Shown in pieces: positions 1 to 13,970 of a DNA stretch of 64,000 nt. Position numbers and translations under genes: made by a program. The stretch is taken from assembly GCA_966211435.1 (NCBI GenBank), contig CBIHOG010000021.1:6353-70352 (forward strand), in the 5' to 3' direction. The notes below the pieces were generated by a model. The model did no database searches. It had not been told where the DNA came from and worked only from the letters and a program-made list of their open reading frames with translations. The stretch is from an uncultured Variovorax sp. (GTDB lineage Bacteria; Pseudomonadota; Gammaproteobacteria; Burkholderiales; Burkholderiaceae_C). Each line of letters opens with the position of its first letter. Positions within the stretch are counted from its first letter, which is position 1.

Positions 1-402
1 GTTGGCGCGGAAGGTGCCGTCGATCAGGCCGACGGTGGGAAAGTTCTGTACGCCCGAGAAACCGAGCATGACCAGGCGCTGGAGGAACTCCTCCGGGATC
101 ATGAAGGGATCGGTGCCATTCACGCCTGCCAGCACCGGCGTGTGCTTCACCACCGGCAGCACCTCGCGCGCCATCTCGCAGACGATCTCGTTGGCATTGC
201 CGTAGGCCAGCAGGCCGGCGAGCGAGCCGCGGCCCGCCATGCGGTAGCGGCCGGAGTTGTAGATGACGATCATGTCGATGCCGCCGGCTTCCTCGCACTT
301 GGCCGAGAGGCCGGTACCGGCGCCGCCGCCGATGATCGGCTGGCCGGCGGCGATCTTGGCGCGGAAGCGTTGGAGCAGGGTGGATCTGGAGATGCGCGGC
401 AT
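1..402 (-). CDS. Phosphoenolpyruvate-hydrolase-like TIM-barrel protein (Tm-1 C-terminal homolog), 3' truncated by window edge
   Basis: Not in the ORF track. Manual translation from ATG at 402 gives [74 protein letters not shown]..., the signature of this family; open to position 1. Confidence 0.9.
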
Positions 403-422
403 GGTCGTGTCGTGGTCCCTGG

Positions 423-2648
423 TCAGGCACGCCGTGCGTTGGCGGGAGACCGGGCCGCTTCTTGCCAGGCCTGCACGAGCGCCTCGGCGAAGGCTTCGTC
501 GTTGATGTGCAGCGGCAGGCGCTGCAGTTTGTGGTCGGGGCCGGCGCGGAAGCCTTTCTCGATGGCGTCGAAGAGCGCGCGGTCGGCTTCCGGGTCGTGG
601 AAAGGCTGGCCCGGCCTGTCGATGGCGGAGACGCCGCTTTCGGGAATGAGGAAGCGCACCGGTCCGCGCATGGCGTTGAGCTTGGCGGCGATGAATTCGC
701 CGATCGCTCGGCACTCCTCGGCGGTGGTGCGCATCAGCGTCACGGTCGTGTTATGGCGGTAGAGCTTGCGGGATCTGAAGCGCTCGGGCACCGTGTCCCA
801 GGCGCCGAAGTTGATCATGTCCAATGCGCCGCAGGAGCCGACGTAGGGCAGGGCGTGGCGCGCGAAGACGTCCAGCCGCGCCGGGCCGGCGGAAAGCACG
901 CCGGCGCCGATCTCGTCGGCGATCTCTGTGGTCGACACGTCGATGGCGCCGGCGAGCAGACCTTGGTCGGCGAGCTTCTCCATCGACTGTCCACCAACGC
1001 CGGTGGCGTGGAAGACCAGGCAGTCATAGCTGTCCTCGAGACGCTTGGTGACGGCCTGCACGCAGGGCGTGGTCACGCCGAACATGGTGAGGCCGATGGC
1101 GGGCTTGACCACCGTCGAATGCACGGGCGGGTGCGCGATCATCCCGGCCAGTGCGTTCGCGGCGTTGGCGAACACGCTCTCGCTGATGCGGTGGATGCCT
1201 TGCACGTCAGTCACCGAATACATCATGCAGATGTCACTCGGGCCCACGTAGGGCCGCGTGTCGCCGCTGGCCATGGTGGAGACCATCATCTTGGGCACGC
1301 CGATCGGCAGCGCGCGCATGCCTTGCGTGGCCATGGAGGTGCCGCCCGAGCCGCCGGCGGAGATGATGCCGCCGAGATCGCGGCGGGTGCGCAGGAAGGC
1401 CTCGAAGGCGATGCCCATCGCGGCGGTTGCGCTGCCGCGGTCGCCGCTGAAGACCGCCGACTCGCCGCCCGGGTGATGGCGTGCCACCTCGCGAGGATGG
1501 ATGCTGGCGGAGGAGGTCTTGCCGGAGGTGGAGAGGTCGACGGTGACCACGCGCAGGCCGAGGCGCTCCAGGCATTGCCGCAGGAAGAACAGCTCGCGCC
1601 CCTTGGTGTCGAAGGTGCCCGCGACATAGGCCGCGCGCACGCTGCTCGCGGCCACCGGGAAGTCGAAGACCTGGGCCGGGGCGGCAGCGGGCTCCGGCGG
1701 CGCGGGTGGCGCAACGGCGGCCAGGCGGGCGATGTCGGTGACCGGCGCGGCGGTGCCGCCGGCGTTCCAGCGCGTGAAGCCGCGCACGGTGCCAGGCGCC
1801 ACATCATCGAGCGAGGGAGCGCCGTCGCCATGTGCCCGGCGCACGGTGAAGACGCGTACGGGTGGCGGCTCGTCGGGCTCGGCGGCGGAGGCCTGCGCCT
1901 CCTCCTCCTGGCCCGCCGAGCGCACGCCGAGCAGGCGCTCCTGCAGTTCGCGGTCGGCAGCCAGCTGCGCGCTGGGCATCTGCTGCGCGATGCGGCCGTT
2001 GACCATCACGCCGATGCGGTCCGCGACCGAGATCGCGACGCCAAGGTTCTGCTCGATCAGCAGCACTGCGATGCGTCCTTCGGCGGCGAGGTCGCGCAGC
2101 GACTGCGCGACCTGCTCGACGATCACCGGTGCCAGGCCTTCGGTGGGCTCGTCCATCACGAGCAACTTTGGGTCGAGCAGCAGGGCGCGGCCGATGGCCA
2201 GCATCTGCTGTTCGCCGCCGGAGAGCTGCGAGCCGCCATTGCCGCGGCGCTCGGCGAGGCGCGGGAACATGGCGTAGATACGGTCCACATCGCGCCTGCG
2301 GCTGGCGACCAGGCGCAGGGTTTCATCCACCGAGAGCGAGGGCCACACGCGCCGCCCCTGCGGTACATAGGCGATGCCGCGGCGGGTGATCTCATTGGGT
2401 GCCAGGCCCAGTACTTCCTCGCCCAGCAGCCGGACGCTGCCGCGCGCGGGCACCATGCCGGTGATGGCGTTGCACAGCGTGGTCTTGCCCATGCCGTTGC
2501 GCCCGACGATGCCGAGAACGCCGCGTTCCAGCGACAGGCTCACGCCCTGCAAGGCGTGGGCGCGGCCGTAGAACACGTCGAGCCCCTCGACCGCGAGCAC
2601 CGGCGCGCGGCTGTCCGAGTTGTCTTGCGGCTTGCCGAACCAGGCCAT
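423..2648 (-). CDS. Fusion: LivF-type ABC ATPase + Pro/Ala linker + Tm-1-like ATP-binding (UPF0261) domain
   Basis: N-terminal GRNGMGKT Walker A, LSGGEQQ signature, LLVMDEP Walker B; C-terminal GTFDTKGRE and GGSGGT motifs of UPF0261/Tm-1; single 741-aa ORF. Confidence 0.9.
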
Positions 2649-3466
2649 CAGTGCCGGCTCCCCATGTAGATGGCCTGCACCTGCGCATCGCCCTCGATTT
2701 CCTGCGGGCTGCCGGTGCGCAGCACGCGGCCGTTGTGCATCACGGTCACCTTCTCGACCACGCGCAGCGCGATGTCCAGGTCGTGCTCGATCAGCACGAA
2801 GCTCATGTGCGCCGGCAGAGAGCCGAGCAGCGCGACCAGCTCGCGGCGCTCGGCCGGCGAGAGCCCCGCGGCCGGCTCGTCGAAGAGGATCAGGCGCGGC
2901 GCACCCGCCAACGCCATGCCGATCTCCAGTTGCCGCTGCTGGCCGTGCGCCAGGTTCGCCACGCGCTCGTCGGCGATGTGGCTGAGCCGGGTGCGTTCCA
3001 GCAGGTCGTTGGTGGCCATCGAGGAGTGATGGCCGAAGCGTGCGCGCTTGAAGCTGAAGCGTCCGTTGGAGACGCCGCGCACGGCGAGGAACAGGTTGTC
3101 CCGCACCGTCAATTCACGGAACAGCAGCGAGGACTGGTAAGTGCGCCGCAGGCCCTTGCGGATGCGCTCGCAGGGCGGCAGCGTCGTGATGTCCTCGCCG
3201 AAGAAATGGATCCGCCCCGCGGTGGGCGGAAAGTCGCCGGTGATGGCGTTGAAGAGCGTGGTCTTGCCGGCGCCGTTGGAGCCGAGGATGGCGTATTTCT
3301 GCCCGGCCTCGACCGTGAGCGACACGTCGTCGACCGCGCGCAGCGCGCCGAAGGCGCGGGTCACCCCCTCCAGCCGGAGCGCATCGCCCGACAGCAGCTG
3401 CGTGCCGGCGTGGGGGGCGGCGGCGCCGCGCAGGGCGGCCGGCCGCAAGGGGGTGATGGTGGCCAT
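2648..3466 (-). CDS. LivG-type ABC transporter ATP-binding protein
   Basis: GSNGAGKT, LAHGQQRQ, ILFDEP, IEHD; start placed at the second Met (MATITPL), behind a GAAGGG SD-like sequence. Confidence 0.9.
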   Translation of the reverse strand: MATITPLRPAALRGAAAPHAGTQLLSGDALRLEGVTRAFGALRAVDDVSLTVEAGQKYAILGSNGAGKTTLFNAITGDFPPTAGRIHFFGEDITTLPPCERIRKGLRRTYQSSLLFRELTVRDNLFLAVRGVSNGRFSFKRARFGHHSSMATNDLLERTRLSHIADERVANLAHGQQRQLEIGMALAGAPRLILFDEPAAGLSPAERRELVALLGSLPAHMSFVLIEHDLDIALRVVEKVTVMHNGRVLRTGSPQEIEGDAQVQAIYMGSRH

Positions 3467-3494
3467 CGGGGCTGCCCCTTTTCCTTCCCTGTGC

Positions 3495-4748
3495 CTACTT
3501 GCGGCAATCCGGCACGTCACGGGTGCCGAGGCCCATCTTCTGGAACTCCGCCTCGGGCAACCCGAGGGTCTGAGTGATGTTGGGCACCGACTTCACGACC
3601 TTGTTGTAGAAGGAACCGTCCGCCGCCTTCGTCACTTCTGTGATGTAGGTGGTGCCGACGCCGTTGCGGTTGGCGTCGATCTTCACGTCGCCGGCCGGGC
3701 CCTTGAAGTTGGTCTTTTGCAGCGCCTCGCGGTAGGCCTTCTGCCCGCCGGAGAGGTCACCCTTCACCACGTCCAGCGCGTCGAGCGCGGCCTTGGTGTT
3801 GATGTAGTAGAGGTAGGCGAAGAGCGAGGGGCTCGGGAAGCCGTCCTTGAAGTTGGCCTTGTAGTCGGAGACGAATTTCTTCCACTCCGGCGTGTCGATC
3901 GAGTCGGCCATCGGCCCGGCGGAGGCCGTGCCCAGCAGCGACTCGCGGCGCTTGCCCTTGAAGTTGAGCACCGTCTGGTCGACCGTGATCGAGCCGCCGA
4001 TCATCGGCTTGTCGCCGCCGGCCTGCTCGTACTGGGTGAGGAAGTTCACCGCGTCCGAGCCGCCAAGCACCACGACGAGCGCATCGACGTCCTTCGGGAT
4101 CTTGGCGATCACGGAGGCGTAGTCCTTGGTGCCAAGCGGCACCCAGGCCTTGTCCACCACCTTGCCGCCCTTGGCGCAGTAGCTGGCCATGAAGCCCTGC
4201 ACCTGCGAGTAGGGGAAGCCGTAGTCCTCGGCGATCAGGAAGGTCTTCTTGTAGCCTTTGGAGAGCGCATGCTCGCCCAGGCCCACCATCCATTGCGCGC
4301 CCTCGGTGTTGAAACGGTAGAAGTTCGGCGCCGGGTCGCCCAGCGTCGCGCCCTGCGCGCCAGACGAGCCGTTGATGAAGGTGATGCCGGGCTGCGTCTT
4401 CGCGTAGTTCTTGACCGCGATGCCCTCGTCACCCGACAGCGGGCCGATCATGATCTGCACCTTGTCCTGTTCCACCGCCTTGCGCGTGGAGTTGACGGCC
4501 TTGTCGGGCGTGGCGTCCGACGAGACCTTGACGAATTCGATCTTCTTCCCGCCGGCCATGCCGTTCTTCTGCTTGAGCGCGAGGTCCGCGCCGCGCATGC
4601 CATCCTGCCCCGGCGCCGCGAAGGGGCCTTCGAGCGAGGCCAGCAGCCCGATCTTCAAGGTCTCCTGGGCCTGCGCCCAACCCGTGACCGCGATCAACGC
4701 CGCGGCGCCGATGAGGCTGCGTGCCAACACGCTTGTGCTTTTCTTCAT
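3495..4748 (-). CDS. ABC substrate-binding protein, branched-chain amino acid (HAAT/LivK-like) fold
   Basis: Signal peptide, LKIGLLASLEGPFA, GADLAL, periplasmic-binding-protein type I layout. Confidence 0.9.
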   Translation of the reverse strand: MKKSTSVLARSLIGAAALIAVTGWAQAQETLKIGLLASLEGPFAAPGQDGMRGADLALKQKNGMAGGKKIEFVKVSSDATPDKAVNSTRKAVEQDKVQIMIGPLSGDEGIAVKNYAKTQPGITFINGSSGAQGATLGDPAPNFYRFNTEGAQWMVGLGEHALSKGYKKTFLIAEDYGFPYSQVQGFMASYCAKGGKVVDKAWVPLGTKDYASVIAKIPKDVDALVVVLGGSDAVNFLTQYEQAGGDKPMIGGSITVDQTVLNFKGKRRESLLGTASAGPMADSIDTPEWKKFVSDYKANFKDGFPSPSLFAYLYYINTKAALDALDVVKGDLSGGQKAYREALQKTNFKGPAGDVKIDANRNGVGTTYITEVTKAADGSFYNKVVKSVPNITQTLGLPEAEFQKMGLGTRDVPDCRK

Positions 4749-4763
4749 GTCTCGCTCCTGTCT

Positions 4764-5912
4764 TTATGGATGAATGCGGCCGCGGCCGCGGGGGGTGAAC
4801 GGGGCCGGCAGGCGAGTGCGCAGGTGTTGCCACAAGCCGAGCAGACCGTCGGGGGAGAACAGAACAATGGCGAGGAAGACGCCGCCGATGACGAGATTGA
4901 AGCGTTCGCGGTCAACGAGGTCGATCGCGAAGTTCTGCAGCAGCACGAAGACGATCGCGCCGACGAAGGCGCCGATGGGATGCTTCATGCCGCCCAGCAC
5001 GGCGATGATGAGAATGTTGATCATCGCGCCGGTGCCGATGGTCCCGGGCGAGATGCGGCCGTTGTACCAGACCATCAGCACGCCGCCGACGGCCGCGAGA
5101 AAGCCCGCCACCGCGTACGCGCCCACGCGGTGCGCGGTGACGTTGTAGCCCAGCGCCTGCATGCGGCGCGGGTTGTCGCGGATGCCCTGCAGCGCGATGC
5201 CGAAGGGCGCGCGCACCAGGTGCTTGACGAAGAAGTAGCCGCCGAGCGAGCACGCCAGGGTGAGGAAGTAGAAGGGCATCGGCTCGTGCATGTCCTGACC
5301 GAAGACGGTGGGTGGCGCGATGCGGCTGAAGCCCTGGAAGCCGTTGAAGATGGTGTAGTTCTGCTGCGCCAGGTAGAAGAAGGCGACGCCCACGGCCAGC
5401 GTGATCATGATGGTGTAGATGCCCTCGGTGCGCACCGACAGCCAGCCGACGGCCGCGGCGAAGACCGTGGCCAGCGAGATCGCCACGAGCAGCGCGAGCC
5501 ACCAAGGCCAGCCGAGGCTGATGCCGACATTGCTGCTGGTGCCGAAGATCGCGAGCGCGTAGGCCGCGAAGCCCGCGACCGTCATCTGCGCGAGCGAGAC
5601 CATGCCGCCGTAGCCGCCAAGGAAGGTGAGCGACAACGCGATGAGGCCGAGCGCGAGGGATTGCGCGCCGATCTGGAAGGTGAAGAACGGCGTGGCGAAG
5701 AAGGGGTAGGCGAGCACGAAGATGGCGACCAGAATGTGGCGTGCCTCGATGGCGTGCAGCGCCTTCTTCCACCAGCTCTGCCCGGGCTGCACCGAAACGG
5801 CCGCGGGGCGCGTCCCGGCCGGGTGCACGGCCACCGGCCCGCGCGGCGCGCGCGCCGTGCCGGCCGCGGTGGCCGAGGAATTCATGGCCCTGCGCCATTT
5901 CGCGGCGCTCAT
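4764..5912 (-). CDS. LivM-type ABC permease
   Basis: GYGGMVSLAQ, GIYTIMITLA, GIRDNPRRMQALG, VLGGM; ATGA overlap with the upstream livH-like stop at 5909-5912. Confidence 0.88.
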   Translation of the reverse strand: MSAAKWRRAMNSSATAAGTARAPRGPVAVHPAGTRPAAVSVQPGQSWWKKALHAIEARHILVAIFVLAYPFFATPFFTFQIGAQSLALGLIALSLTFLGGYGGMVSLAQMTVAGFAAYALAIFGTSSNVGISLGWPWWLALLVAISLATVFAAAVGWLSVRTEGIYTIMITLAVGVAFFYLAQQNYTIFNGFQGFSRIAPPTVFGQDMHEPMPFYFLTLACSLGGYFFVKHLVRAPFGIALQGIRDNPRRMQALGYNVTAHRVGAYAVAGFLAAVGGVLMVWYNGRISPGTIGTGAMINILIIAVLGGMKHPIGAFVGAIVFVLLQNFAIDLVDRERFNLVIGGVFLAIVLFSPDGLLGLWQHLRTRLPAPFTPRGRGRIHP

Positions 5913-6850
5913 GTGTTCTTTCCCATCAGCCCGCGCGGCTTGAAGGCCAGCGCCACGACCATGATCACGAAGGTGAAGACCACGCTGTAAGTCGGCGCAT
6001 AGGCCAGCCCGAACTGCTCGGCCAGTCCGATGAGCAGCGCGCCGATGGCCGCGCCCACGACGCTGCCCATGCCGCCGACGATGACGACGACCAGCGAGGC
6101 GAGCAGGTAGCGCGTGTCCTCGCCCGGCGAAATGGAAAGCGCCGTGCCGCCCACCACGCCCGCGAGCCCGGCCATGCCGGCGCCGATGGCGAAGGTGAGC
6201 GCGAAGACGCGTTGCACATTCACGCCCGAAGCGGCGAGCATGCCGCGATCGTCCACGCCGGCGCGGATCATCATGCCGATGCGTGTGCGCGCGAGCAGCA
6301 GCCACAAGCCGACGCCGATGACGACGGAGGCGAGCAGCACCATGAGCCGGTAGGTCGGGAACTTGTTGACCAGCGGCAGGGTGGTGGAGCCGTAGATCCA
6401 GGCGGGCGGATCGAAGGTGTAGATCTCGGCGCCCCAGATCCACAGTGCGACGTCGGCCAGCACGATCGAGAGACCGATGGTCACCAGCGTCTGCCTCAGG
6501 TCCTGGCCCTGCATGTGGCGGAAGATGAGCAACTGCATCAGCAAGCCGAGGATGGCAGCGGAGAGGAAGCCCGCGATGACGGCCAGCACCCACGAGCCCG
6601 TGTGCTCGCCGACCATCCAGCCGACGTAGGCGCCGATCAGGTAAAGCGAGCCGTGCGCGAGGTTGACGTTGCGCATGAGGCCGAAGACGAGCGTGAAGCC
6701 GCTGGCGACGAGGAAGTAGAGCGAGGCGAGCGTGAGGCCGTTGAGCAGCGTCTTGAAGAAGAGCGATGCGTTGTCGGCGATGGCCCAGACGGCGAACACG
6801 GCGATCGGTGCGCCGAAGACGAGCCAGAGCGCCCCCTGTTTTCGAGTCAT
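5909..6850 (-). CDS. LivH-type ABC permease
   Basis: LNGLTLASLYFLVASGFTLVFGLMRNVNLAHG, GMMIRAGVDD, VGGMGS; start MTRKQG overlaps the amidohydrolase stop. Confidence 0.9.
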   Translation of the reverse strand: MTRKQGALWLVFGAPIAVFAVWAIADNASLFFKTLLNGLTLASLYFLVASGFTLVFGLMRNVNLAHGSLYLIGAYVGWMVGEHTGSWVLAVIAGFLSAAILGLLMQLLIFRHMQGQDLRQTLVTIGLSIVLADVALWIWGAEIYTFDPPAWIYGSTTLPLVNKFPTYRLMVLLASVVIGVGLWLLLARTRIGMMIRAGVDDRGMLAASGVNVQRVFALTFAIGAGMAGLAGVVGGTALSISPGEDTRYLLASLVVVIVGGMGSVVGAAIGALLIGLAEQFGLAYAPTYSVVFTFVIMVVALAFKPRGLMGKNT

Positions 6851-8130
6851 GCGGCGTGCTCCCAGGTCCGCTGCGACGCGATCTCGGGTACCTTGGCGAA
6901 TTCGCCGTCCTTCATCACGGCCAGGATGCGCTTCGGGTCGCGCAGGATGGAGAGATTGGCGAGCGGATCGCCGTCCACCAGCAGCAGGTCGGCGAGGTAG
7001 CCGTCCTTGATGGCGCCGAGTTCGCTGCCGCGCATCATGATCTGCCCGCCATAGACGGTGGTGCTGCGGATGGCTTCCATGGGCGTGAACCCGAGGTACT
7101 TGACGAAGAACTCCAGGTCGCGCGCGTTCTGGCAATGGGGCGTGAAGGCGAAGCCGTAGTCGCCGCCGGGCAGGATGCGCACGCCGCGGCGGTGGATGGC
7201 CTTCAGCGACTCGATGGCCGCATCCCACTCGATCTGGTAGCCCATGGCCACCGCCTTCTCGTGGGTGATGCCGAAGGCGGCGGCTTCGTGCAGCATCGCG
7301 TAGAGGATCGCGATGCCGGGCGCGACGAACACGCGGTCCTTCGCGGCTTCGAGCATGTCGAGGGTTTCCTCGTCCGTGAAGCTGGCGTGGTAGATCACGT
7401 CGATGCCGTGGCGCAACGCCTGCTTGACCGAGGCGGCCGAACGCGCATGCGCGGTGCCGCGCTTGCCGCGCACGCGCACTTCCTGCATGGCGGCGTCGAC
7501 TTCGGCATCGCTCATCCAGGTGGTGTCGGCGGGTGAGTCGGGCGTGAAGTTGTCGCCGGAGAGGTTGAGCTTGATGGAGTCGACGCCGTACTTCAGGAAC
7601 ATGCGCGTGACCTTGCGCATCTCGTCCGCAGAGTTGACGTTGACGCCGAAGCTGAATTCAGGAAAGGGAAGGTGGGGCAGGGTCTCGTCGCCCAACCCGC
7701 CGGGGACGGTGATCTCCTGGCTTGCCGCGAGGTAGCGCGGCCCCGGGATCTGCCCTGCATTGATGGCGTTGCGGATCACGACATCGAGCCGCGGCTTCGC
7801 GCAGGCGGCCCCCACGCAAGAGGTGAAGCCTGCCTCGAGGTAGCGCCTGGCGACCTTGGCGCACCACAGCACGTGCTCTTCCAGCGGCATGCGCTGGATG
7901 GCGGAGAGGGTGGCCGCATCGTTCCACGAGAAGTGCGTGTGCGCCTCGCACATGCCAGGCATCAGGGTGGCGCCCGCGCCGTCGACCACCATCGCCCCGC
8001 CGGGTGAGATCGGCGCGGTGCTGCGGCCGACCTGGCGGATGCGGTTGCCTCGGACGAGGACGCTGCCTGTGTAGGGGTTCTGGCCAGTGCCGTCCAGGAT
8101 GCGGACGTTGGTGAAGACTACGTCACTCAT
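6847..8130 (-). CDS. Metal-dependent amidohydrolase (prolidase-like subgroup), copy 1
   Basis: MPGMCEAHTH (HxH), SIK, AHAR, IYHAS, PGGDYG, GYLADLLLVDGDPL. Confidence 0.9.
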   Translation of the reverse strand: MSDVVFTNVRILDGTGQNPYTGSVLVRGNRIRQVGRSTAPISPGGAMVVDGAGATLMPGMCEAHTHFSWNDAATLSAIQRMPLEEHVLWCAKVARRYLEAGFTSCVGAACAKPRLDVVIRNAINAGQIPGPRYLAASQEITVPGGLGDETLPHLPFPEFSFGVNVNSADEMRKVTRMFLKYGVDSIKLNLSGDNFTPDSPADTTWMSDAEVDAAMQEVRVRGKRGTAHARSAASVKQALRHGIDVIYHASFTDEETLDMLEAAKDRVFVAPGIAILYAMLHEAAAFGITHEKAVAMGYQIEWDAAIESLKAIHRRGVRILPGGDYGFAFTPHCQNARDLEFFVKYLGFTPMEAIRSTTVYGGQIMMRGSELGAIKDGYLADLLLVDGDPLANLSILRDPKRILAVMKDGEFAKVPEIASQRTWEHAA

Positions 8131-8232
8131 GAGGCTCTCCTTCGGACGGCGGGAGGCGATGGGCGCTGGATAGGGGCGTGCTGATCAAGACGCCCCGTGC
8201 CGGGCGTCCTTCCAAGGCAGGCGCAAGACAGG

Positions 8233-9540
8233 TCATGCCGCCACCAACCCTTGCCCGGACCACCGCGTCGTCCGGGCCCCGCGCAAAGCCGGCGCGCGAT
8301 GAAACTCCCCATCCTTCATCACGGCCAGAATCCGCGCCTTGTCCTGCAGCACGGTGATGTCCGAGAGCGGATCGCCGTCGATCAACAGGATGTCCGCCAG
8401 ATATCCTTCGCGGATGTACCCCAGCACCTTGCCCATCCGCATCATCGGCCCGCCCCACGCGGTCGCGGAGAGCAGCGCCTCCATGGTGCTCATCCCCACG
8501 TACTTGACGAAGTACTCGAGGTCCCTGGCATTGGTGCCATGCGGCGTCCATGCGAAGCCGTAGTCCCCGCCGGGCAGGATGCGAACGCCGCGCTTGCGCA
8601 GCGCACGCATGCTCTCGATGGCGGCGTCGAGTTCGCGGTGGTAGCCCATCTTCCGCGTCACTTCCGGCGTCAGTCCCCACTCGCTCGCGTTGTGGCAGGT
8701 GTTGATGAGCCATGCCAGCCCCGGCGCGATGAAGTGCTCCATCTTGTGCGCCTCAAGCATGTCCAGCGCCTCCTCGTCCGTGAAGCTCGCGTGGTAGATC
8801 ACCTCGATCCCCTGCTTCACGCACTGCTTGATCGCCCACGTCGAACGGGCATGCGCCGCCACTCGCTTGCCCCAGGCCTTGGCCTCCTGCACGCAGACCG
8901 TGATCTCCTCCTCCGTGAACTGGCTCATCTCGCTCGGCATGCCCGTGATCGACTCGCCCGAGAGATTGATCTTCAACGAGTCGACGCCGTACTTCGCGAA
9001 CATGCGCACGCAGCGCCGCATCTCCTCGCAGCCGCTCACGACCGCGCCGAAGGCGAACTCCGGCTGCGGCAGGTGCGGCTGCGTCGTGTCGCCCAGGCCG
9101 CCGGGCACCGTGATCTCCTGGCTCGCCGCCAGGTAGCGCGGACCGACGATGGTGCCGTCCTGGATCGCGTTGCGGATCACCACGTCCAGCCGCGGCTTCG
9201 CCGTCGCCGCGCCGACGCAGCTGGTCCAGCCCATGTCGAGGTAGCGCTTTGCAACCTCCGCGCACCAGAGGATGTGTTCCTCCGGCGGCATGCGCTGGAT
9301 CGCGTCCAGGCTCGGCTGGTCGTTCCACGAGAAATGCGTATGCGCCTCCACCATGCCCGGCATCAGGAAAGCGCCCGCGCCGTCGATCACCTGCGCTCCC
9401 ATCACGGGCGCCGCGCGACCGCCGTAGCCCGTCTTCACGACGCGCGCGATGCGGTTGCCCTGCACCAGAACGTCGCCCATGAAGGGCGCCTCGCCGCCGC
9501 CGTCGAAGATGCGGACATTGGTGAACATGACGTCGGCCAT
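8233..9540 (-). CDS. Metal-dependent amidohydrolase, copy 2
   Basis: C-terminal part of the 1215-aa track ORF; real start MADVMFTNVRIFDG at 9540; MPGMVEAHTH, AAHAR, IYHAS, PGGDYG. Confidence 0.9.
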   Translation of the reverse strand: MADVMFTNVRIFDGGGEAPFMGDVLVQGNRIARVVKTGYGGRAAPVMGAQVIDGAGAFLMPGMVEAHTHFSWNDQPSLDAIQRMPPEEHILWCAEVAKRYLDMGWTSCVGAATAKPRLDVVIRNAIQDGTIVGPRYLAASQEITVPGGLGDTTQPHLPQPEFAFGAVVSGCEEMRRCVRMFAKYGVDSLKINLSGESITGMPSEMSQFTEEEITVCVQEAKAWGKRVAAHARSTWAIKQCVKQGIEVIYHASFTDEEALDMLEAHKMEHFIAPGLAWLINTCHNASEWGLTPEVTRKMGYHRELDAAIESMRALRKRGVRILPGGDYGFAWTPHGTNARDLEYFVKYVGMSTMEALLSATAWGGPMMRMGKVLGYIREGYLADILLIDGDPLSDITVLQDKARILAVMKDGEFHRAPALRGARTTRWSGQGLVAA

Positions 9541-9542
9541 GG

Positions 9543-10340
9543 TCAGTTCCTCGTGTTGGAAGCCAGGAATTCGCGCAGCTCGCGCTGGCACTCTTCGGGC
9601 CGTTCGATCGGCGTCCAGTGGCCGCAGCGCGGCAGTACCACCACGCGCTTGCTCGCGGCGCGATGCAGCTTGTCGGCCATCGCGCGCACCGACTGCGGCG
9701 GCGCCACGCCGTCCTCGTCGCCGGTGACCAGCAGCACCGGCGCCTCGATGCGCTCCACTGCCGCGGGCTGCGCGCCGGCCAGCGCCTCGCAGCTGCGCGC
9801 ATAGGCCTCGCCGTCCTGGCGCATCAGGCTTTCGCGCACATAGGCCACCGCGACCGGCAGGCGCTGGCGCGTATCGGCGGAGATCGCGGCGTTCAACAGC
9901 CCCTGCGTGATCTCGTGCATGCCGCCCGCGCCTTCGCGGGCCTTCGCCGCGCGGGCCTGCATGGCCGTGCGCGCGGCGTCGGGCGGCGCGATCAGCGGGC
10001 CGAAGAGCGCCATGCTCGCGGCGAGCGAAGCGTGCTCTGCCGCGATGTGCTGGCACACGATGGTGCCCATCGAATGCCCAACCCAGTGCGCGCGCGTGAT
10101 CTTCAGCCGCTCGCAGATGCGCAGCAGCGTCTCGACATAGCGCTCGATGGAGAGCGCGCCCTCCGCTCGCTGCGAGCGCCCGCTGCCGGGCAGGTCCACG
10201 CGCACGACGCGATGCCGCGCCATCGCGGGCATCAGCGGCGTGTAGGTGTTGGAGCTGCCACCCAGCCCGTGCACGCAGACGACGGCCGGGCCTTCGCCGT
10301 CCTCCTCCACCGCGACGCGATCGATCAACTGAAAGGCCAT
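9543..10340 (-). CDS. Alpha/beta fold hydrolase (PcaD/enol-lactonase-like)
   Basis: HGLGGS oxyanion loop, GHSMG nucleophile elbow, DEDGVAP, GHW catalytic His. Confidence 0.88.
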   Translation of the reverse strand: MAFQLIDRVAVEEDGEGPAVVCVHGLGGSSNTYTPLMPAMARHRVVRVDLPGSGRSQRAEGALSIERYVETLLRICERLKITRAHWVGHSMGTIVCQHIAAEHASLAASMALFGPLIAPPDAARTAMQARAAKAREGAGGMHEITQGLLNAAISADTRQRLPVAVAYVRESLMRQDGEAYARSCEALAGAQPAAVERIEAPVLLVTGDEDGVAPPQSVRAMADKLHRAASKRVVVLPRCGHWTPIERPEECQRELREFLASNTRN

Positions 10341-10346
10341 GGTCTG

Positions 10347-11213
10347 CTACTCGAAGTGGTTCTCGATGACGCCGACGCCGTCGATCTCGATGCGCACCGC
10401 GTCGCCGGACTTCAGCCATTGCGGCGGCTTCTGGCCCATGCCCACGCCTGATGGCGTGCCGGTGGCGATCACATCGCCGGGGTACAGCGTGATTCCGCGC
10501 GAGCAGGTCTCGATGAGGGTGGGGATGTCGAAGATCATGTCCTTCGTCAGCCCGTCCTGCCGCAGCGCGCCGTTGACCCAGCCGCGCACGCGCGTGGCGC
10601 GGCCGTCGAGTTCGTCGGCGGTGACGATCCACGGGCCCATCGGGCAGAAGGTGTCGAAGCTCTTGCCCAGGTCCCATTGCTGGTGGCGCATCTGCACGTC
10701 GCGCGCGGTCACGTCGTTGACGATCGTGTAGCCGAAGACATGCGCCATGGCGTGTGAGCGTGGGATGTCGCGGCCGCCGCGGCCGATGACGACCGCAAGC
10801 TCCGACTCGTAGTCGATCTGCACCGAGATCGAAGGCGAGGGCAGGCGCACCGCGTCGTGGGGGCCGATCACGCATTCGCCCAGCTTGCCGAAGACGATGG
10901 GCCAGGGGTCGGTCTCGGGCATGGTCTCGCGGAACACGGTGCCGGCGAGTTCGGTCGCATGCGCGTGGTAGTTGCGGCCGACGCAGAAGAGGCCGCGCAG
11001 GGGACGCGGCAGCGGCGCGCGAAGGGTGATGACATCGACCGGCAGCCGCGTGCCGGAAGGCTGCGGCAGCGGCTCGTCGCGTGCGATCGCCTGGATGAGC
11101 GGCAGCACACCCAGTGACGCATCGCGCACGGACAGCGGCGTGGCTTCCCGCCCGTCCGGCGAGATCGTGCCCACGTGATCGCGTCCGCCCCAACTCCAGC
11201 TGGCCAAGCGCAT
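10347..11213 (-). CDS. Fumarylacetoacetate hydrolase family protein
   Basis: CVGRNYHAH, DYESEL, GYTIVNDVTARD, GKSFDTFCPMGP, GDVIATGTP; start MRLASW behind a GGAGA SD. Confidence 0.92.
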   Translation of the reverse strand: MRLASWSWGGRDHVGTISPDGREATPLSVRDASLGVLPLIQAIARDEPLPQPSGTRLPVDVITLRAPLPRPLRGLFCVGRNYHAHATELAGTVFRETMPETDPWPIVFGKLGECVIGPHDAVRLPSPSISVQIDYESELAVVIGRGGRDIPRSHAMAHVFGYTIVNDVTARDVQMRHQQWDLGKSFDTFCPMGPWIVTADELDGRATRVRGWVNGALRQDGLTKDMIFDIPTLIETCSRGITLYPGDVIATGTPSGVGMGQKPPQWLKSGDAVRIEIDGVGVIENHFE

Positions 11214-11284
11214 CGCAGTTGTCTCCATCTTGTCCCGGGGTTCTTGCGGTTCGCACCACCGCCTCGGGATCAGTGAAAGTCCTT

Positions 11285-11304
11285 TTTGAGACTTGTGTCT
11301 CAAA
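11285..11304. promoter_or_regulatory. Putative TetR operator (perfect inverted repeat TTTGAGAC-ttgt-GTCTCAAA)
   Basis: 8-bp perfect inverted repeat with 4-bp spacer in the divergent FAH/TetR intergenic region. Confidence 0.7.
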
Positions 11305-11382
11305 TCGGGATCGGTGCATCATACGATCCGAGTTCCGGCCTTCACAAGCCGGTGAAAGCCATTCCAGACCCGTACAAACCCC

Positions 11383-12129
11383 ATGGCACGACTGAAGCAC
11401 AAGCTGAGCGAACCGCCCGTGCCTCCCGATCGCGGCGTGAAGGCAGCCACCTTCAACCTGCTGCTCGACACCGCGATGGACATCATTCGCCAGAGCGGCC
11501 ACATTCCATCCGTCGCCGAGGCGGCGGCGCGCTCGAAGGTGTCGCGCGCGACGGCGTACCGCTACTTTCCGAGCCGCAGTGCGCTGATCACGGCGGTGGT
11601 CGACAGCTCGCTCGGGCCGGTGCGCAAGCTCGCCTCCGACAACCCGAGCGGACGCGAGCGGGTGCACGAACTCTTCCTGCAGACCTTCCCGCGTTTCAAG
11701 GAGTTCGAGCCGCAGATGCGCGCCGCCGCGCAGCTGTCGCTGGAGCAATGGGCGCTGGAGCGCGCCGGGCTGCTGGAGGAGGAGCCGTACCGGCGCGGCC
11801 ACCGCGTGCGCATCCTGGAGCACGCGATCGAGCCGCTCGCGCCGCTGCTGCGGCCGGCCGTGCGCGACCGGCTGCATCACGCGCTGTCGGTGGTCTACGG
11901 CATCGAGCCGTACATGATCCTGAAGGACATCTGGGGCCTGGGCGACCGCGAGGTCGAGCGCACCGCGCTGTGGATGGCCGACGCGCTCATCGATGCGGCA
12001 TTGCGCGAGTCGGGCGAGAAGCCGGCCGGACGCGCGTCTCGTGCCGCGAAGTCCAACGGGAGTGCCGGCGCCGCGAGCCCGGCGCCGGCCACCGTCAAGC
12101 GTCGCCCGGCCCGCGTCCCGGGCGGCTGA
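11383..12129 (+). CDS. TetR/AcrR family transcriptional regulator
   Basis: HTH PSVAEAAARSKVSRATAYRYF; divergent from the catabolic operon. Confidence 0.92.
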   Translation: MARLKHKLSEPPVPPDRGVKAATFNLLLDTAMDIIRQSGHIPSVAEAAARSKVSRATAYRYFPSRSALITAVVDSSLGPVRKLASDNPSGRERVHELFLQTFPRFKEFEPQMRAAAQLSLEQWALERAGLLEEEPYRRGHRVRILEHAIEPLAPLLRPAVRDRLHHALSVVYGIEPYMILKDIWGLGDREVERTALWMADALIDAALRESGEKPAGRASRAAKSNGSAGAASPAPATVKRRPARVPGG

Positions 12130-12156: not shown

Positions 12157-13851
12157 CTACATGCCGACGTAGTTCGGCCCGCCGCCGCCTTCGGGTGTGA
12201 CCCACACGATGTTCTGGGTCGGATCCTTGATGTCGCAGGTCTTGCAGTGCACGCAGTTCTGCGCGTTGATCTGCAAGCGCTCCTTGCCATTCGAATCCGG
12301 CACGAACTCGTAGACGCCTGCGGGGCAGTAGCGGCTTTCCGGGCCGGCGTACTCGGGCAGGTTGATCTCGGTGGGCACCGCGGCGTTCTTCAGCGTCAGG
12401 TGCGCCGGCTGGTTCTCTTCGTGGTTGGTGTTGCTGATGAAGACGGACGAGAGTCGGTCGAAGGTGAGCTTGCCGTCCGGCTTGGGGTAGGCGATCTTCT
12501 TGCACGCCGACGCGCGCTTCAGCCGCTCGTTGTCCGGCGTGGTGTTGTGCAGCGTCCAGGGTACGTGGCCGCGCAGCACGAATTGCTCGATGCCGGTCAT
12601 GACGGTCGCGACCGTCAGGCCCTTCTTGAACCATTGCTTGAAGTTGCGCGCCTTGTTGAGCTCCGTGTGTAGCCAGCTCTTTTCGAAGGATTCGGGATAC
12701 GCCGCGAGCTCGTCCTGCTGGCGGCCGGCCGTGATGGCATCGAAGGCGGCCTGCGCCACCAGCATGCCGGTCTTGATCGCGGCGTGGCTGCCCTTGATGC
12801 GGCTCGCGTTGAGGTATCCGGCCTCGCAGCCCACCAGCGCGCCGCCCGGGAACACGGTCTTGGGCAGGGAGAGCAGGCCACCCGCCGTGATCGCGCGGGC
12901 ACCATAGCTCAGGCGCTTGGGCGCCTTCAGTCCCTTGTCCTGCCCCTCGAAGTACCAACGGATGTTCGGGTGCGTCTTGAAGCGCTGGAATTCCTCGAAA
13001 GGGCTCAGGTGCGGGTTCTGGTAGTCGAGGCCGACCACGAAGCCGACGATGAGCTGGTTGTTCTCCGCGTGGTAGACGAAGGAGCCGCCATAGGTGTCCG
13101 ACTGCAGCGGCCAACCGGCGGTGTGCACGGCCAGGCCCGGCTCGTGGCGGGCGGGGTCGATCTCCCACAGCTCCTTGATGCCGATGCCGTAGCTCTGGGG
13201 CTGCCTGCCTTCGTCGAGCTTGTATTTCGCGATCAGCTGCCGGCCCAGGTGGCCGCGCGAGCCTTCGGCGAACACCGTGTACTTGCCGAGAAGTTCCATT
13301 CCCAGCTGGAAGTTCTCGGTCGGCTCGCCGTCCTTGCCGATGCCCAGGTTGCCGGTGGCGACGCCGCGCACTTTGCCGTCCTCGGTGTAGAGCACCTCGG
13401 CGGCGGGGAAGCCCGGGAAGATCTCCACGCCGAGGCTCTCGGCCTGCTGCGCGAGCCAGCGCACCACGTTGCCGAGGCTGACGATGTAGTTGCCCTCGTT
13501 GTGGAAGTTGTGCGGCAGCATGAAGTTGGGCGTGCGCGTGGCGCCGGTCTCGCTCAACATCAGGAAGGTGTCTTGCGTGACTGGCTGATGGAGCGGGGCG
13601 CCGAGTTCCTCCCAGTCGGGCAGCAATTCGAAGAGCGCGCGCGGGTCCATGATGGCGCCGGAGAGGATGTGGGCGCCGGGTTCGGAGCCCTTCTCAAGCA
13701 CGACGACGGAGATCTCCTTGCCATGCGATGCGGCCAACTGCTTGAGGTGGATGGCGGTGGAAAGGCCCGCGGGCCCTGCGCCGACCACCACCACGTCGTA
13801 TTCCATGGTTTCGCGGGGGCCGTACTGGGCGAGGATTTCGTCGTGCGTCAT
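12157..13851 (-). CDS. Electron transfer flavoprotein-ubiquinone oxidoreductase
   Basis: DVVVVGAGPAGLS FAD motif, GAHILSGA, C-terminal CPAGVYE...NCVHCKTCDIKDP 4Fe-4S motif; start MTHDEIL. Confidence 0.96.
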   Translation of the reverse strand: MTHDEILAQYGPRETMEYDVVVVGAGPAGLSTAIHLKQLAASHGKEISVVVLEKGSEPGAHILSGAIMDPRALFELLPDWEELGAPLHQPVTQDTFLMLSETGATRTPNFMLPHNFHNEGNYIVSLGNVVRWLAQQAESLGVEIFPGFPAAEVLYTEDGKVRGVATGNLGIGKDGEPTENFQLGMELLGKYTVFAEGSRGHLGRQLIAKYKLDEGRQPQSYGIGIKELWEIDPARHEPGLAVHTAGWPLQSDTYGGSFVYHAENNQLIVGFVVGLDYQNPHLSPFEEFQRFKTHPNIRWYFEGQDKGLKAPKRLSYGARAITAGGLLSLPKTVFPGGALVGCEAGYLNASRIKGSHAAIKTGMLVAQAAFDAITAGRQQDELAAYPESFEKSWLHTELNKARNFKQWFKKGLTVATVMTGIEQFVLRGHVPWTLHNTTPDNERLKRASACKKIAYPKPDGKLTFDRLSSVFISNTNHEENQPAHLTLKNAAVPTEINLPEYAGPESRYCPAGVYEFVPDSNGKERLQINAQNCVHCKTCDIKDPTQNIVWVTPEGGGGPNYVGM

Positions 13852-13970
13852 GTGGGTCTCGTCGATAATGATTTTGAGGATGCGAGGCGCCGTGGCGGGC
13901 CGGATCATTTTATGCGGCGCCCGCGGAGCCTCCGGACGGTCGCCGCGGCGACTCCAAGAGGACTTCTCCC

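Follow-up and report, generated by a model that had tools for sequence, protein, structure and literature searches.

Described systems related to the locus

Among UPF0261 proteins, kinase activity is known only for MarK of Novosphingobium aromaticivorans (PDB 9MPY), an ATP-dependent kinase of phenolic hydroxyls that forms a free homodimer, is encoded beside acetovanillone-catabolic carboxylase and phosphatase genes, and for which the study reports no TIM-barrel partner (PMC12624787). In plant Tm-1 (PDB 3WRV-3WRY; PMC5028733) a UPF0261 domain and a PF09370 TIM barrel are joined in one chain. The 3hpd cluster of Ensifer adhaerens HP1 combines a kinase-type pair for an aromatic hydroxyl, a separate SRPBCC protein and an oxidoreductase: the 3-hydroxypyridine dehydrogenase HpdA depends on a distinct SRPBCC subunit as well as on a pair of the PEP-utilising/PPDK type (bioRxiv 10.1101/2020.01.08.898148), and thus provides a precedent for a kinase, an SRPBCC protein and an oxidoreductase working together on a hydroxy-N-heterocycle. 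ABC importers of the HAAT family (Liv/Urt-type) consist of two BPD_transp_2 permeases, LivG- and LivF-type ATPases and a Peripla_BP_6 protein.

The locus analysed here is a real gene cluster of soil bacteria, apparently a TetR-controlled operon for an importer, kinase-like proteins, a flotillin, a reductase and hydrolases. Its UPF0261 domain belongs to the MarK family and conserves the D-T-K motif, but it is joined to an ABC ATPase, has a TIM barrel as partner and is closer to tomato Tm-1, and the locus has neither the carboxylase nor the phosphatase. In comparison to plant Tm-1, UPF0261 and the TIM barrel are encoded side by side, the former being fused to LivF and the latter having a gene of its own. 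The cluster resembles 3hpd in its putative kinase pair, separate SRPBCC and oxidoreductase; however, the pair is UPF0261/TIM instead of PEP-utilising/PPDK type, the reductase is a quinone oxidoreductase (QOR) with no molybdenum hydroxylase, and 3hpd lacks a flotillin and an importer fusion. Alphaproteobacterial sister clusters are like 3hpd in that their SRPBCC genes are followed by a molybdenum hydroxylase. The importer has the HAAT composition, but all its components fall far below the Liv/Urt equivalog cut-offs, its genes are ordered LivH-LivM-SBP-LivG-LivF, and its LivF carries an additional, enzyme-like domain of 400 aa.

Gene content and packing of the putative operon

In the window (the whole 64-kb stretch of DNA analysed), we found all eleven genes of the initial annotation, ten of them co-oriented and divergent from TetR (Table 1): a fumarylacetoacetase-family (FAH) enzyme, an alpha/beta hydrolase, two paralogous amidohydrolases (AH2, AH1), LivH, LivM, the solute-binding protein (SBP), LivG, LivF::UPF0261 and a TIM barrel. 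Its description of the cluster as complete was wrong because the unit carries on to the left of the window, for about 4.5 kb, where flotillin, SRPBCC, SRPBCC::QOR and VOC genes were found. The putative operon has 14 genes, nine and a half of them within the window, and with TetR makes a 15-gene unit. The hidden downstream genes also account for the earlier impression that nearly every enzyme was hydrolytic and that no oxygenase was in view, as well as for the seeming lack of redox enzymes, since an SRPBCC::NADPH-quinone-oxidoreductase and a VOC-superfamily protein, which is possibly a dioxygenase, are encoded just past the edge.

Table 1. Features of the cluster; L002 positions are given for the genes that lie beyond, or run across, the left edge of the window.
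Feature	Position	Strand	Remarks
Small VOC protein	L002:1874-2251	-	left of window
SRPBCC::QOR fusion (NADPH)	L002:2271-3749	-	left of window
SRPBCC	L002:3749-4189	-	left of window
Flotillin	L002:4193-5893	-	left of window
PEP-hydrolase-like TIM barrel, whole gene, 281 aa	L002:5909-6754	-	PF09370 426.8 bits; PDB 2P10 (Mll9387) 8e-125
TIM barrel, 5' part	1..402	-	starts at 402, runs off window
LivF::UPF0261 (Tm-1/MarK-like), 741-aa single ORF	423..2648	-	PF00005, PF06792, PF23189; Walker A 2481-2504, signature motif 2205-2225, Walker B 2148-2165
GTFDTKG, ATP-phosphate-binding D-T-K motif (residues 347-349)	1599..1619	-	aligns with MarK D14-T15-K16, Tm-1 K20
Variable Ala/Pro-rich linker, ~100 aa	1641..1928	-	conserved short motif FTRWNAGG at 1755-1778
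LivG/UrtD-type ABC ATPase	2648..3466	-	PF00005 E 3.5e-32
Periplasmic SBP, 417 aa	3495..4748	-	PF13458 E 1.5e-52
LivM-type permease	4764..5912	-	PF02653 E 4.4e-37; start overlaps LivH stop (ATGA)
LivH-type permease	5909..6850	-	PF02653 E 2.2e-39; start overlaps AH1 stop (ATGA)
Amidohydrolase AH1, 427 aa	6847..8130	-	PF01979 E 2.5e-22; AH2 paralogue
Amidohydrolase AH2, 435 aa	8233..9540	-	PF01979
Alpha/beta-fold hydrolase, 3-oxoadipate enol-lactonase-like (PcaD-like), 265 aa	9543..10340	-	PF00561 E 1.2e-30; GHSMG nucleophile elbow at residue 88
FAH-family enzyme, 288 aa	10347..11213	-	PF01557 E 2.5e-70; ATG with GGAG Shine-Dalgarno; alternative start 11228
Candidate TetR operator	11285..11304	.	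perfect palindrome TTTGAGAC-TTGT-GTCTCAAA, core TGAGAC-N4-GTCTCA
Predicted sigma-70-like operon promoter	11318..11347	-	TTGTGA, 18 nt, TATGAT; consensus scan, 9/12 matches
TetR-family repressor, 248 aa	11383..12129	+	PF00440 26.1 bits, cut-off 24; divergent from operon

The genes in the window are separated by 2-28 nt, apart from two ATGA overlaps, a one-base overlap and a single larger gap of 102 nt between AH2 and AH1. One of the ATGA overlaps (AH1/LivH) spans the hydrolase/importer boundary. To the left, the gaps are 15 nt (TIM/flotillin), 3 nt (flotillin/SRPBCC) and 0 nt, and no convincing terminator was found inside the operon, the genes of which are probably co-transcribed.

The view that the genes form one unit and correspond to no characterised pathway was upheld: comparison with NCBIfam equivalog cut-offs, a PDB sequence search and a literature search gave no match to such a pathway, and none of the papers searched describes the cluster. 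No enzyme reached an NCBIfam equivalog cut-off. The best FAH score was 174.5 bits against a cut-off of 500 (closest PDB entries 8SKY, 1.8e-64, and 6IYM), and the alpha/beta hydrolase scored 132 bits against 256 for PcaD (TIGR02427; PDB 2XUA, 5.6e-27). The amidohydrolases, which are 61% identical to each other, share a fold subgroup with Cc2672 (PDB 3MTW), ochratoxin amidohydrolase (PDB 8IHQ) and ochratoxinase (PDB 4C5Y), and in both the metal ligands of the carboxypeptidase-like enzymes of the superfamily (HxH, Lys, His, His, Asp) are present. This likeness, which for AH2 is to ochratoxin-type amidohydrolases, the Arg carboxypeptidase Cc2672 and prolidase-like enzymes, is at about 1e-39 only, and the NCBIfam Xaa-Pro dipeptidase model gave 237 and 218 bits against a cut-off of 500. 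By similarity, AH1 and AH2 are nearer to carboxypeptidase-type N-acyl-amino-acid hydrolases than to ring-opening lactamases, a point against the route proposed below.

The SBP starts with a signal-peptide-like segment and is far under the urea and Liv equivalog cut-offs; LivG matched UrtD and LivG best, both under cut-off. The PDB entry closest to the SBP was 4ZPJ (3e-43), followed by 4EVQ, 4EY3, 4EVS and 4F06, which we take to be aromatic-acid binders.

The LivF::UPF0261 fusion

The fusion scored 582.6 bits with NF002673 (cut-off 520), and more than 120 clusters with this architecture were found. Its UPF0261 domain matched Tm-1 (PDB 3WRY, 3e-91) and MarK (PDB 9MPY, 4e-58). The linker varies from 65 to 126 aa, with an identity of 0.32-0.41 in comparison to 0.54-0.70 in the domains; nevertheless, a TRW motif within it was kept in all six closely related fusions and in seven of the 11 more distant full-length ones (P0121, P0122, P0123, P0127, P0134, P0149 and P0177), down to 41% identity.

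The initial annotation had treated the domain neutrally, as Tm-1, a reading that is not supported now that the family is shown to include a kinase of phenolic hydroxyls (PMC12624787). With residue roles for the D-T-K motif taken from the same study, the domain may be a kinase: besides this motif it retains the equivalents of MarK G195, H219 and H304, which contact the phenolic oxygen or form the stack with the ring. Four of the seven residues of the substrate pocket are changed (T196V, F283M, I285N, H348I), all of them specificity residues.

Alternatively, UPF0261 could serve as a regulatory module of the importer that senses ATP and a cytoplasmic ligand and gates transport, leaving the chemistry to the TIM barrel and the other enzymes. 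Regulatory domains at the C-terminus are known from other ABC importer ATPases (MalK, MetN, ModC), and the long variable tether at the C-terminus of the ATPase, with a conserved TRW motif that could dock on a partner, would suit such an arrangement. Tomato Tm-1 likewise acts via ATP-bridged protein binding and not by known catalysis (PMC12624787). However, the conservation of the residues for phenolic oxygen and ring stacking speaks for catalysis, LivF and UPF0261 are separate proteins in Thermomicrobium, and the UPF0261-TIM pair also occurs on its own under TetR control, as two genes without any transporter, which excludes the regulation of transport as the primary role of the pair. We consider a regulatory module unlikely.

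Conservation in layers and the candidate TetR operator

About 60 loci from different Burkholderiales genera share the order TetR<>FAH-alpha/beta hydrolase-AH2-AH1-LivH-LivM-SBP-LivG-LivF::UPF0261-TIM-flotillin-SRPBCC-SRPBCC::QOR, with the VOC gene directly next in 34 of 49 evaluable loci. With some 60 independent loci in one order, the arrangement is far beyond chance. We also noticed that the cluster is common to many soil bacteria.

The importer-UPF0261-TIM part (LivH-LivM-SBP-LivG-LivF-UPF0261-TIM) keeps its order in Alphaproteobacteria and in Thermomicrobium roseum, in the latter with LivF and the Tm-1-like protein encoded by two neighbouring, unfused genes. The QOR fusion was found together with the FAH-alpha/beta hydrolase-amidohydrolase trio in this cluster, in all Burkholderiales loci and in loci L116, L118, L121 and L122. 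In the alphaproteobacterial version with two unfused SRPBCC genes a molybdenum hydroxylase was present instead (6/6 loci); none was found in the Burkholderiales loci. The hydrolase trio, which had been regarded as the heart of the system, is therefore an accessory layer, in every case together with the QOR fusion. The deep core, as judged by comparison of the loci, lies elsewhere, in TetR, UPF0261 and TIM, with the importer, flotillin and SRPBCC as the next layer.

Such layers of different phylogenetic depth could also mean that two or three independent neighbours meet here, namely the hydrolases, the importer with the kinase pair, and the flotillin, SRPBCC and QOR genes; the 102-nt gap and the position of the hydrolase trio in L116, which differs from that in L118 and L121, would agree with this. 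We find it highly improbable, since the hydrolase/importer boundary is an ATGA overlap and the TIM/flotillin/SRPBCC gaps are tiny, the adjacency is kept in the Burkholderiales loci, the QOR fusion and the hydrolase trio occur together without exception, and AH2-type genes (at least 56% identity) occurred only inside such clusters in a sample of 401 genomes.

TetR control, proposed earlier, gained support from a conserved candidate operator at the predicted promoter, directly downstream of the -10 hexamer, and all operon genes are apparently under this one repressor. The palindrome matched only once in the window and recurred, with up to three mismatches, in the TetR-FAH intergenic region of 32/32 loci. 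TetR orthologues (47-93% identity) hold the same position at related loci, and homologues of 38-48% identity adjoin stand-alone UPF0261-TIM pairs in other families. In such minimal loci (L123, L124, L125, L130) the palindrome is present with 0-1 mismatch, often twice, which ties the regulator to the UPF0261/TIM chemistry.

A possible route and its alternatives

The reading that we prefer, and to which we give an about even chance, is that of an inducible, TetR-repressed 14-gene operon that imports, phosphorylates, reduces and hydrolyses one class of small compound. The SBP and LivHM/LivG/LivF would carry the compound in, and, as it emerges, UPF0261 tethered to LivF would, with its TIM partner and ATP, phosphorylate a phenol- or enol-type hydroxyl, which would trap or activate the compound. 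The SRPBCC proteins and SRPBCC::QOR would then bind and reduce the ring, and the flotillin may, judging from gene adjacency, keep them near the importer. The VOC protein, the two amidohydrolases, the enol-lactonase-like hydrolase and FAH would open and cut the product to central metabolites. TetR, bound to TGAGAC-N4-GTCTCA over the promoter, would leave the DNA in response to the substrate or to its phosphorylated derivative. This order of steps and the substrate class are what we infer: the compound would be a hydroxylated aromatic, N-heteroaromatic or quinonoid, probably anionic, possibly as an amide or lactone conjugate. An amide, lactone or N-heterocycle is a possible substrate. UPF0261-TIM pairs also occur in sugar-like contexts, as on pNGR234a, where a sugar ABC transporter is encoded with them, together with a cupin and a Gfo/Idh/MocA oxidoreductase, so an aromatic substrate is not a given.

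If instead the amidohydrolases and the lactonase-like hydrolase were the key enzymes, the operon could scavenge N-acyl or N-aroyl amino acids or lactone-amides (aromatic acid-amino acid conjugates, isocoumarin amides, opened acyl-homoserine lactones), with the kinase-like pair handling the released product. The solved structures nearest to AH1 and AH2 (ochratoxin amidohydrolases, Cc2672, prolidase-like enzymes) are those of enzymes that hydrolyse the amide bond to a C-terminal amino acid, an enol-lactonase comes closest to the alpha/beta hydrolase, the SBP falls in the Liv/aromatic-acid binder class, and Variovorax paradoxus VAI-C, a classic degrader of acyl-homoserine lactones, has the full cluster. 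In that strain, however, their use is ascribed to Ntn-type acylases (PMC8142574), the amidohydrolase likeness is only at about 1e-39, the PDB is biased to ochratoxin hydrolases, and the alphaproteobacterial versions lack the hydrolases yet keep the importer components (about 50-64% identity) and the SBP (about 47-53%). This makes scavenging a doubtful alternative to the phosphorylating route.

The same downstream genes could be read as non-catabolic, the flotillin, SRPBCC proteins, QOR and kinase modifying or sequestering a redox-active quinone or cofactor-like molecule in membrane-associated salvage or detoxification. The flotillin, the two lipid/ligand-binding SRPBCC domains and the quinone reductase form the downstream block that varies least, enzyme conservation is unusually high (75-94% identity across genera), and TetR-controlled modifying enzymes are typical of detoxification. 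We regard this as quite improbable: an SBP-dependent importer of high affinity points to deliberate uptake, and enzymes such as FAH, the enol-lactonase-like hydrolase and the amidohydrolases are typical of degradation. The patchy occurrence in the genus, in about one third of genomes (an orthologous fusion in 25 of 80 other sampled Variovorax genomes), fits an optional nutrient route.

Gene content on both sides of the window edge

Genes were called in the window (bases 6353-70352 of the contig, in a genome of 5.98 Mb that its relatives put within or close to Variovorax) from an ORF listing combined with Pfam and NCBIfam scans. All of the genes named in the initial annotation were present, on the strands stated there. 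The same annotation had called the cluster complete and had regarded its enzymes as nearly all hydrolases, with no oxygenase among them. Neither view survived the examination of 6.3 kb of the left flank, where the remainder of the TIM-barrel gene was followed by four more genes of the cluster, including a reductase in which an SRPBCC domain is fused to a quinone oxidoreductase (SRPBCC::QOR) and a VOC-superfamily protein. The apparent lack of redox enzymes was thus due to where the window ends.

Genes of the cluster in the window and in the contig stretch to its left (L002)
Feature	Coordinates	Strand	Remarks
TetR	11383-12129	+	PF00440
FAH-family enzyme	10347-11213	-	PF01557 domain only
PcaD-like alpha/beta hydrolase	9543-10340	-	
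Amidohydrolase AH2	8233-9540	-	
Amidohydrolase AH1	6847-8130	-	
LivH	5909-6850	-	BPD_transp_2 permease
LivM	4764-5912	-	BPD_transp_2 permease
SBP	3495-4748	-	Peripla_BP_6 solute-binding protein
LivG	2648-3466	-	ABC ATPase
LivF::UPF0261	423-2648	-	one ORF of 741 aa; PF06792 and PF23189
TIM barrel	starts at 402 and runs past the window edge; whole gene L002:5909-6754	-	PF09370
Flotillin			566 aa; 15 nt downstream of the TIM barrel, left of the window; N-terminal membrane segment
SRPBCC protein			146 aa; 3 nt beyond flotillin, left of the window
SRPBCC::QOR			492 aa; overlaps the preceding SRPBCC gene, left of the window
VOC (glyoxalase/dioxygenase superfamily) protein	L002:1874-2251	-	125 aa; about 20 nt beyond SRPBCC::QOR

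The genes are closely packed, with ATGA overlaps at AH1/LivH and LivH/LivM and a single base shared by LivG and LivF; the remaining intergenic gaps are of 2-28 nt, and only the one between AH2 and AH1 is wider (102 nt). A UbiE-like methyltransferase gene to the left of the VOC gene was placed outside the unit, and no related locus contained a methyltransferase match. On the other side, an ETF-ubiquinone oxidoreductase gene (12157-13908, minus strand) converges on TetR with a gap of 27 nt; it looks like a housekeeping gene, lies outside the flanks compared and was not counted in the unit.

Conservation of the cluster and of its candidate operator

The LivF::UPF0261 fusion was found with the same architecture and at least 80% identity in more than 120 database clusters, and more than 547 relatives were found among species-representative genomes; 80 loci were compared. 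In these loci, which span Variovorax, Rhizobacter, Rubrivivax, Piscinibacter, Pseudorhodoferax, Caldimonas, Ramlibacter and others, the order TetR<>FAH-ABH-AH2-AH1-LivH-LivM-SBP-LivG-LivF::UPF0261-TIM-Flot-SRPBCC-SRPBCC::QOR (ABH, the alpha/beta hydrolase) was kept wherever the contig was long enough. The VOC gene came directly next in 34 of 49 evaluable loci and is a frequent last member of the operon. Set beside this order, the alternative that the genes are merely adjacent and belong to separate units appears very improbable. An orthologous fusion (at least 81% identity) was found in 25 of the 80 other sampled genomes of the genus; the cluster is an optional trait of the genus and not part of its core. 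V. paradoxus VAI-C carries the full cluster on its chromid (CP063167.1), with all genes generically named; its TetR is absent from the PLSDB gene table and was detected by tblastn at 83% identity.

On the scale of the phylum, UPF0261 was present in 35 of 401 sampled genomes, and twenty 20-kb contexts could be arranged in three layers. The first comprises minimal loci (L123, L124, L125, L129, L130), in which a TetR 38-48% identical to ours is divergent from a stand-alone UPF0261-TIM pair; the neighbours in two of them (L123, L129) are heterogeneous and include a decarboxylase, an SDR, a peptide ABC transporter and an M24 peptidase. The second layer is a Liv-type importer with the fusion, the TIM barrel, flotillin and SRPBCC genes, at 50-70% identity in several alphaproteobacterial families. 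The third occurs in two forms, which were never mixed in the sample. In one of them, found in the window, all Burkholderiales loci, L116, L118, L121 and L122, SRPBCC::QOR accompanies the FAH-ABH-AH trio; in the other (L113, L114, L115, L117, L119, L120), two unfused SRPBCC genes are followed by a molybdenum hydroxylase of the CoxM/CoxS/split-CoxL type. Neither the contig stretch nor the 80 Burkholderiales loci contained CoxL/M/S-type subunits, which were seen only in the alphaproteobacterial sister clusters. In L118 and L121, from another family of the same phylum, flotillin directly follows UPF0261, with no TIM-barrel match in between; the TIM partner may be encoded elsewhere in these genomes.

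Outside the phylum, a plasmid of Thermomicrobium roseum (NC_011961.1, 57234-79198) carries LivH-LivM-SBP-LivG-LivF-Tm-1-like-TIM in the same order, with SBP 51% and the TIM barrel 68% identical to those of the window. Here the two genes are unfused, with a 12-nt gap between LivF and the Tm-1-like gene, which argues that the link between importer and putative kinase is older than the fusion. The module is followed by a cyclase, a PEP-utilising/PEP-pyruvate-binding pair, a CoxM-like FAD subunit, an FAH gene and a molybdenum subunit; ABM and xanthine-dehydrogenase-family subunits are also among the neighbours.

The TetR assignment rests on an N-terminal HTH that passes the PF00440 cut-off by a narrow margin (26.1 bits against 24). 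A perfect palindrome, TTTGAGAC-TTGT-GTCTCAAA, occurs once in the window, at 11285-11304, just downstream of the -10 hexamer of the only sigma-70-like promoter predicted on the operon strand. Its core, TGAGAC-N4-GTCTCA, was present in the TetR-FAH spacer of 32 out of 32 related loci and also in VAI-C, making the palindrome a candidate TetR operator that is conserved together with the regulator. The control of the cluster by TetR, proposed in the initial annotation, is in agreement with this prediction. The core was also found with no or one mismatch, often in two copies, between TetR and the UPF0261-TIM pair in four of the five minimal loci, and the fifth carries it twice, with two mismatches; it was not found in the alphaproteobacterial importer clusters. 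The sharing of the core with the minimal loci ties TetR, and hence probably its effector, to the chemistry of UPF0261 and TIM, and not to the hydrolases.

Enzymes, importer and the LivF::UPF0261 fusion

None of the hydrolases of the unit reached an NCBIfam equivalog cut-off. AH1 and AH2 are 61% identical, both have the HxH, Lys, His, His, Asp pattern of metal ligands, and both missed the Xaa-Pro dipeptidase-type model NF051886 (237.3 and 217.7 bits against 500). Their nearest relatives are ochratoxin amidohydrolases, Cc2672 and prolidase-like enzymes, which hydrolyse an amide bond to a C-terminal amino acid, and AH2-type proteins with at least 56% identity occurred only within such clusters in the 401-genome sample. 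This may be read as N-acyl-amino-acid scavenging centred on the hydrolases, which we consider unlikely; sister clusters with the fused importer lack these enzymes. A specific variant, AHL catabolism, was raised by the presence of the cluster in VAI-C and was downgraded because AHL use by this strain is attributed to Ntn acylases (PMC8142574) and because the sister clusters are without the hydrolases. Ring hydrolysis of the enamidase type was rejected as well, as the PDB search with AH2 gave no enamidase-like entry at E 1e-10 or better.

The alpha/beta hydrolase most closely resembles 3-oxoadipate enol-lactonase and missed the PcaD model TIGR02427 (132.2 bits against 255.85). The FAH enzyme has its closest matches in HpcE/YisK-like members and missed the models of HpaG (174.5 against 500), L-2,4-diketo-3-deoxyrhamnonate hydrolase (159.8 against 276.4) and fumarylacetoacetase (38.8 against 375). 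On these cut-offs, the protocatechuate and 4-hydroxyphenylacetate pathways were ruled out. One locus, L055 of Variovorax sp. PCZ-1, has two tandem copies of the alpha/beta hydrolase gene (2337-3943). The VOC protein may have a His/His/Glu metal triad, as a comparison of motifs suggests. In three loci (L065, L068, L072), VOC and FAH have moved together into a TetR-FAH-VOC unit on the opposite strand, which hints that they act in consecutive steps.

SRPBCC::QOR combines a second SRPBCC domain with an MDR enzyme of the NADPH:quinone-oxidoreductase/2-haloacrylate-reductase type (PDB 1WLY and 1QOR, about 1e-61). With such an enzyme, the cluster might be a quinone-handling system with no catabolic role, which seems decidedly unlikely to us. 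The flotillin matched PF01145 (Band_7) and PF15975 (Flot), has a hydrophobic N-terminus and missed the FloT equivalog (42 bits against 700).

The importer is a full HAAT (Liv/Urt-type) set of two permeases, two ATPases and a binding protein. It missed the equivalogs of UrtA (80 bits against 493), UrtC (121 against 296), UrtD (208 against 304), UrtE (210 against 286) and LivF (152 against 441), and uptake of urea or branched-chain amino acids was ruled out on these cut-offs. The nearest PDB entry of SBP is 4ZPJ, followed by 4EVQ, 4EY3, 4EVS and 4F06, the last four of which we take to be binders of lignin-derived aromatic acids. When compared with the related loci, the SBP-LivM-LivH cassette (3495-6850) was of two types in clusters otherwise 80-90% identical: identity to the window was about 85-95% or about 61-70% for SBP, about 70-85% or 61-68% for LivM, and about 56-72% or below 52% (or not detected) for LivH. 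Since both types occur inside one genus within similar clusters, their sequences suggest exchange of the cassette and perhaps two ligand specificities.

The UPF0261 part of the fusion matched PF06792 and PF23189 (201.7 and 300.4 bits) and exceeded the cut-off of NF002673, the UPF0261 family model (582.6 bits against 520). Among PDB entries, it matched tomato Tm-1 (3e-91) better than MarK (4e-58). MarK, the only UPF0261 protein of known activity, is an ATP-dependent kinase of phenolic hydroxyls that releases ADP; its G195 and H219 hydrogen-bond the phenolic oxygen and H304 stacks on the ring (PMC12624787). The GTFDTKG segment of the fusion (residues 344-350) aligns with the ATP-contacting D14-T15-K16 of MarK, and residue mapping showed that the equivalents of G195, H219 and H304 are retained, whereas T196, F283, I285 and H348 are replaced, as in Tm-1. 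This pattern fits a kinase-competent domain with a planar hydroxylated ligand other than that of MarK. Alternatively, the tethered domain could be regulatory and not a substrate kinase, which we find improbable; the retained phenol-contacting and ring-stacking positions speak against it. The TIM barrel, whose gene starts 20 nt downstream of the fusion gene, matched PF09370 over its full length (426.8 bits) and Mll9387 (PDB 2P10) at 8e-125.

LivF and UPF0261 are joined by a tether of variable sequence and length (65-126 aa). It contains FTRWNAGG (1755-1778, fusion residues 291-298), and PTRWS was seen in seven of 11 more distant fusions compared, down to 41% identity; the TRW motif may be a docking site for some partner.

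Proposed function of the operon

The literature search found no published description of the cluster or the fusion, and the hydrolases and importer stay below equivalog cut-offs, so the earlier view that no characterised pathway matches was upheld. In the acetovanillone pathway (MarK or AcvAB/HpeHI with AcvCDEF/HpeCBAD), carboxylase and phosphatase genes lie beside the kinase, whereas none were detected among all 15 cluster genes by Pfam and NCBIfam scans. The 3hpd, pic and Ndh clusters for N-heterocycles encode molybdenum hydroxylase subunits, unlike the cluster of the window. The 3-hydroxypyridine dehydrogenase system, which joins a kinase-type pair with an SRPBCC protein as a separate subunit and an oxidoreductase in acting on a hydroxy-N-heterocycle (bioRxiv 10.1101/2020.01.08.898148), may serve by analogy as a precedent for kinase, SRPBCC and oxidoreductase here.

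Our best explanation, which we judge to stand at about an even chance, is a putative single TetR-repressed operon for the import, phosphorylation, reduction and hydrolysis of a hydroxylated acid that would be aromatic, N-heteroaromatic or quinonoid and might be taken up as an amide or lactone conjugate. The importer would take up the compound, which would be phosphorylated at the importer and reduced by SRPBCC::QOR at a membrane site organised by flotillin; the VOC protein and the four hydrolases would then open and cut it. The comparisons directly establish which genes are present, how they are packed, the fusion, the conserved palindrome and the layered conservation; that UPF0261 acts as a kinase, how the steps follow one another, what flotillin does and which class of substrate is converted are our inferences. 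The aromatic substrate is a preference and not a result, as UPF0261-TIM pairs are also found in sugar-like settings. On pNGR234a (273045-292223), the Tm-1-like gene lies between two PEP-hydrolase-family genes, an arrangement of rhizobial symbiotic plasmids, followed by a cupin, a Gfo/Idh/MocA oxidoreductase and a sigma-54 regulator and adjoined by a sugar-type ABC transporter; this is a separate setting for the pair.

A further and rather doubtful extension of the operon model is a flotillin-organised metabolon, in which the importer would pass its substrate directly to the ATPase-tethered kinase, and the phosphorylated product would go on to SRPBCC-bound redox and hydrolytic enzymes; the first handover would be an ABC-type counterpart of group translocation. 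If true, this would show what the UPF0261/TIM pair originally did in biochemical terms and would identify particular clients of a bacterial flotillin. In land plants, Tm-1-like proteins carry UPF0261 and the TIM partner in one chain, whereas the cluster has them as separate genes.

The component families are all known; their combination and the transporter-tethered kinase-like domain amount to a form of substrate-inducible operon for uptake and conversion that has not been described before. UPF0261 and its TIM partner are widespread, and the cluster provides a defined, regulated system, present in soil bacteria that can be cultured, in which their native substrate can be sought. It has a single repressor whose operator is recognisable, a single binding protein, and downstream enzymes that form a fixed set. 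It is also a concrete case for asking whether a bacterial flotillin serves specific enzyme clients and whether an ABC importer can couple directly to phosphorylation of its own cargo. New are the operator common to the cluster and the minimal units, the finding that the hydrolase trio goes strictly with the QOR fusion as against the molybdenum hydroxylase of the other form, the frequent place of VOC at the end of the unit, the absence of the fusion from the Thermomicrobium module, the two types of SBP-permease cassette and the conserved TRW motif in a variable linker. Public records, including that of VAI-C, wrongly name the fusion 'ABC transporter permease'.
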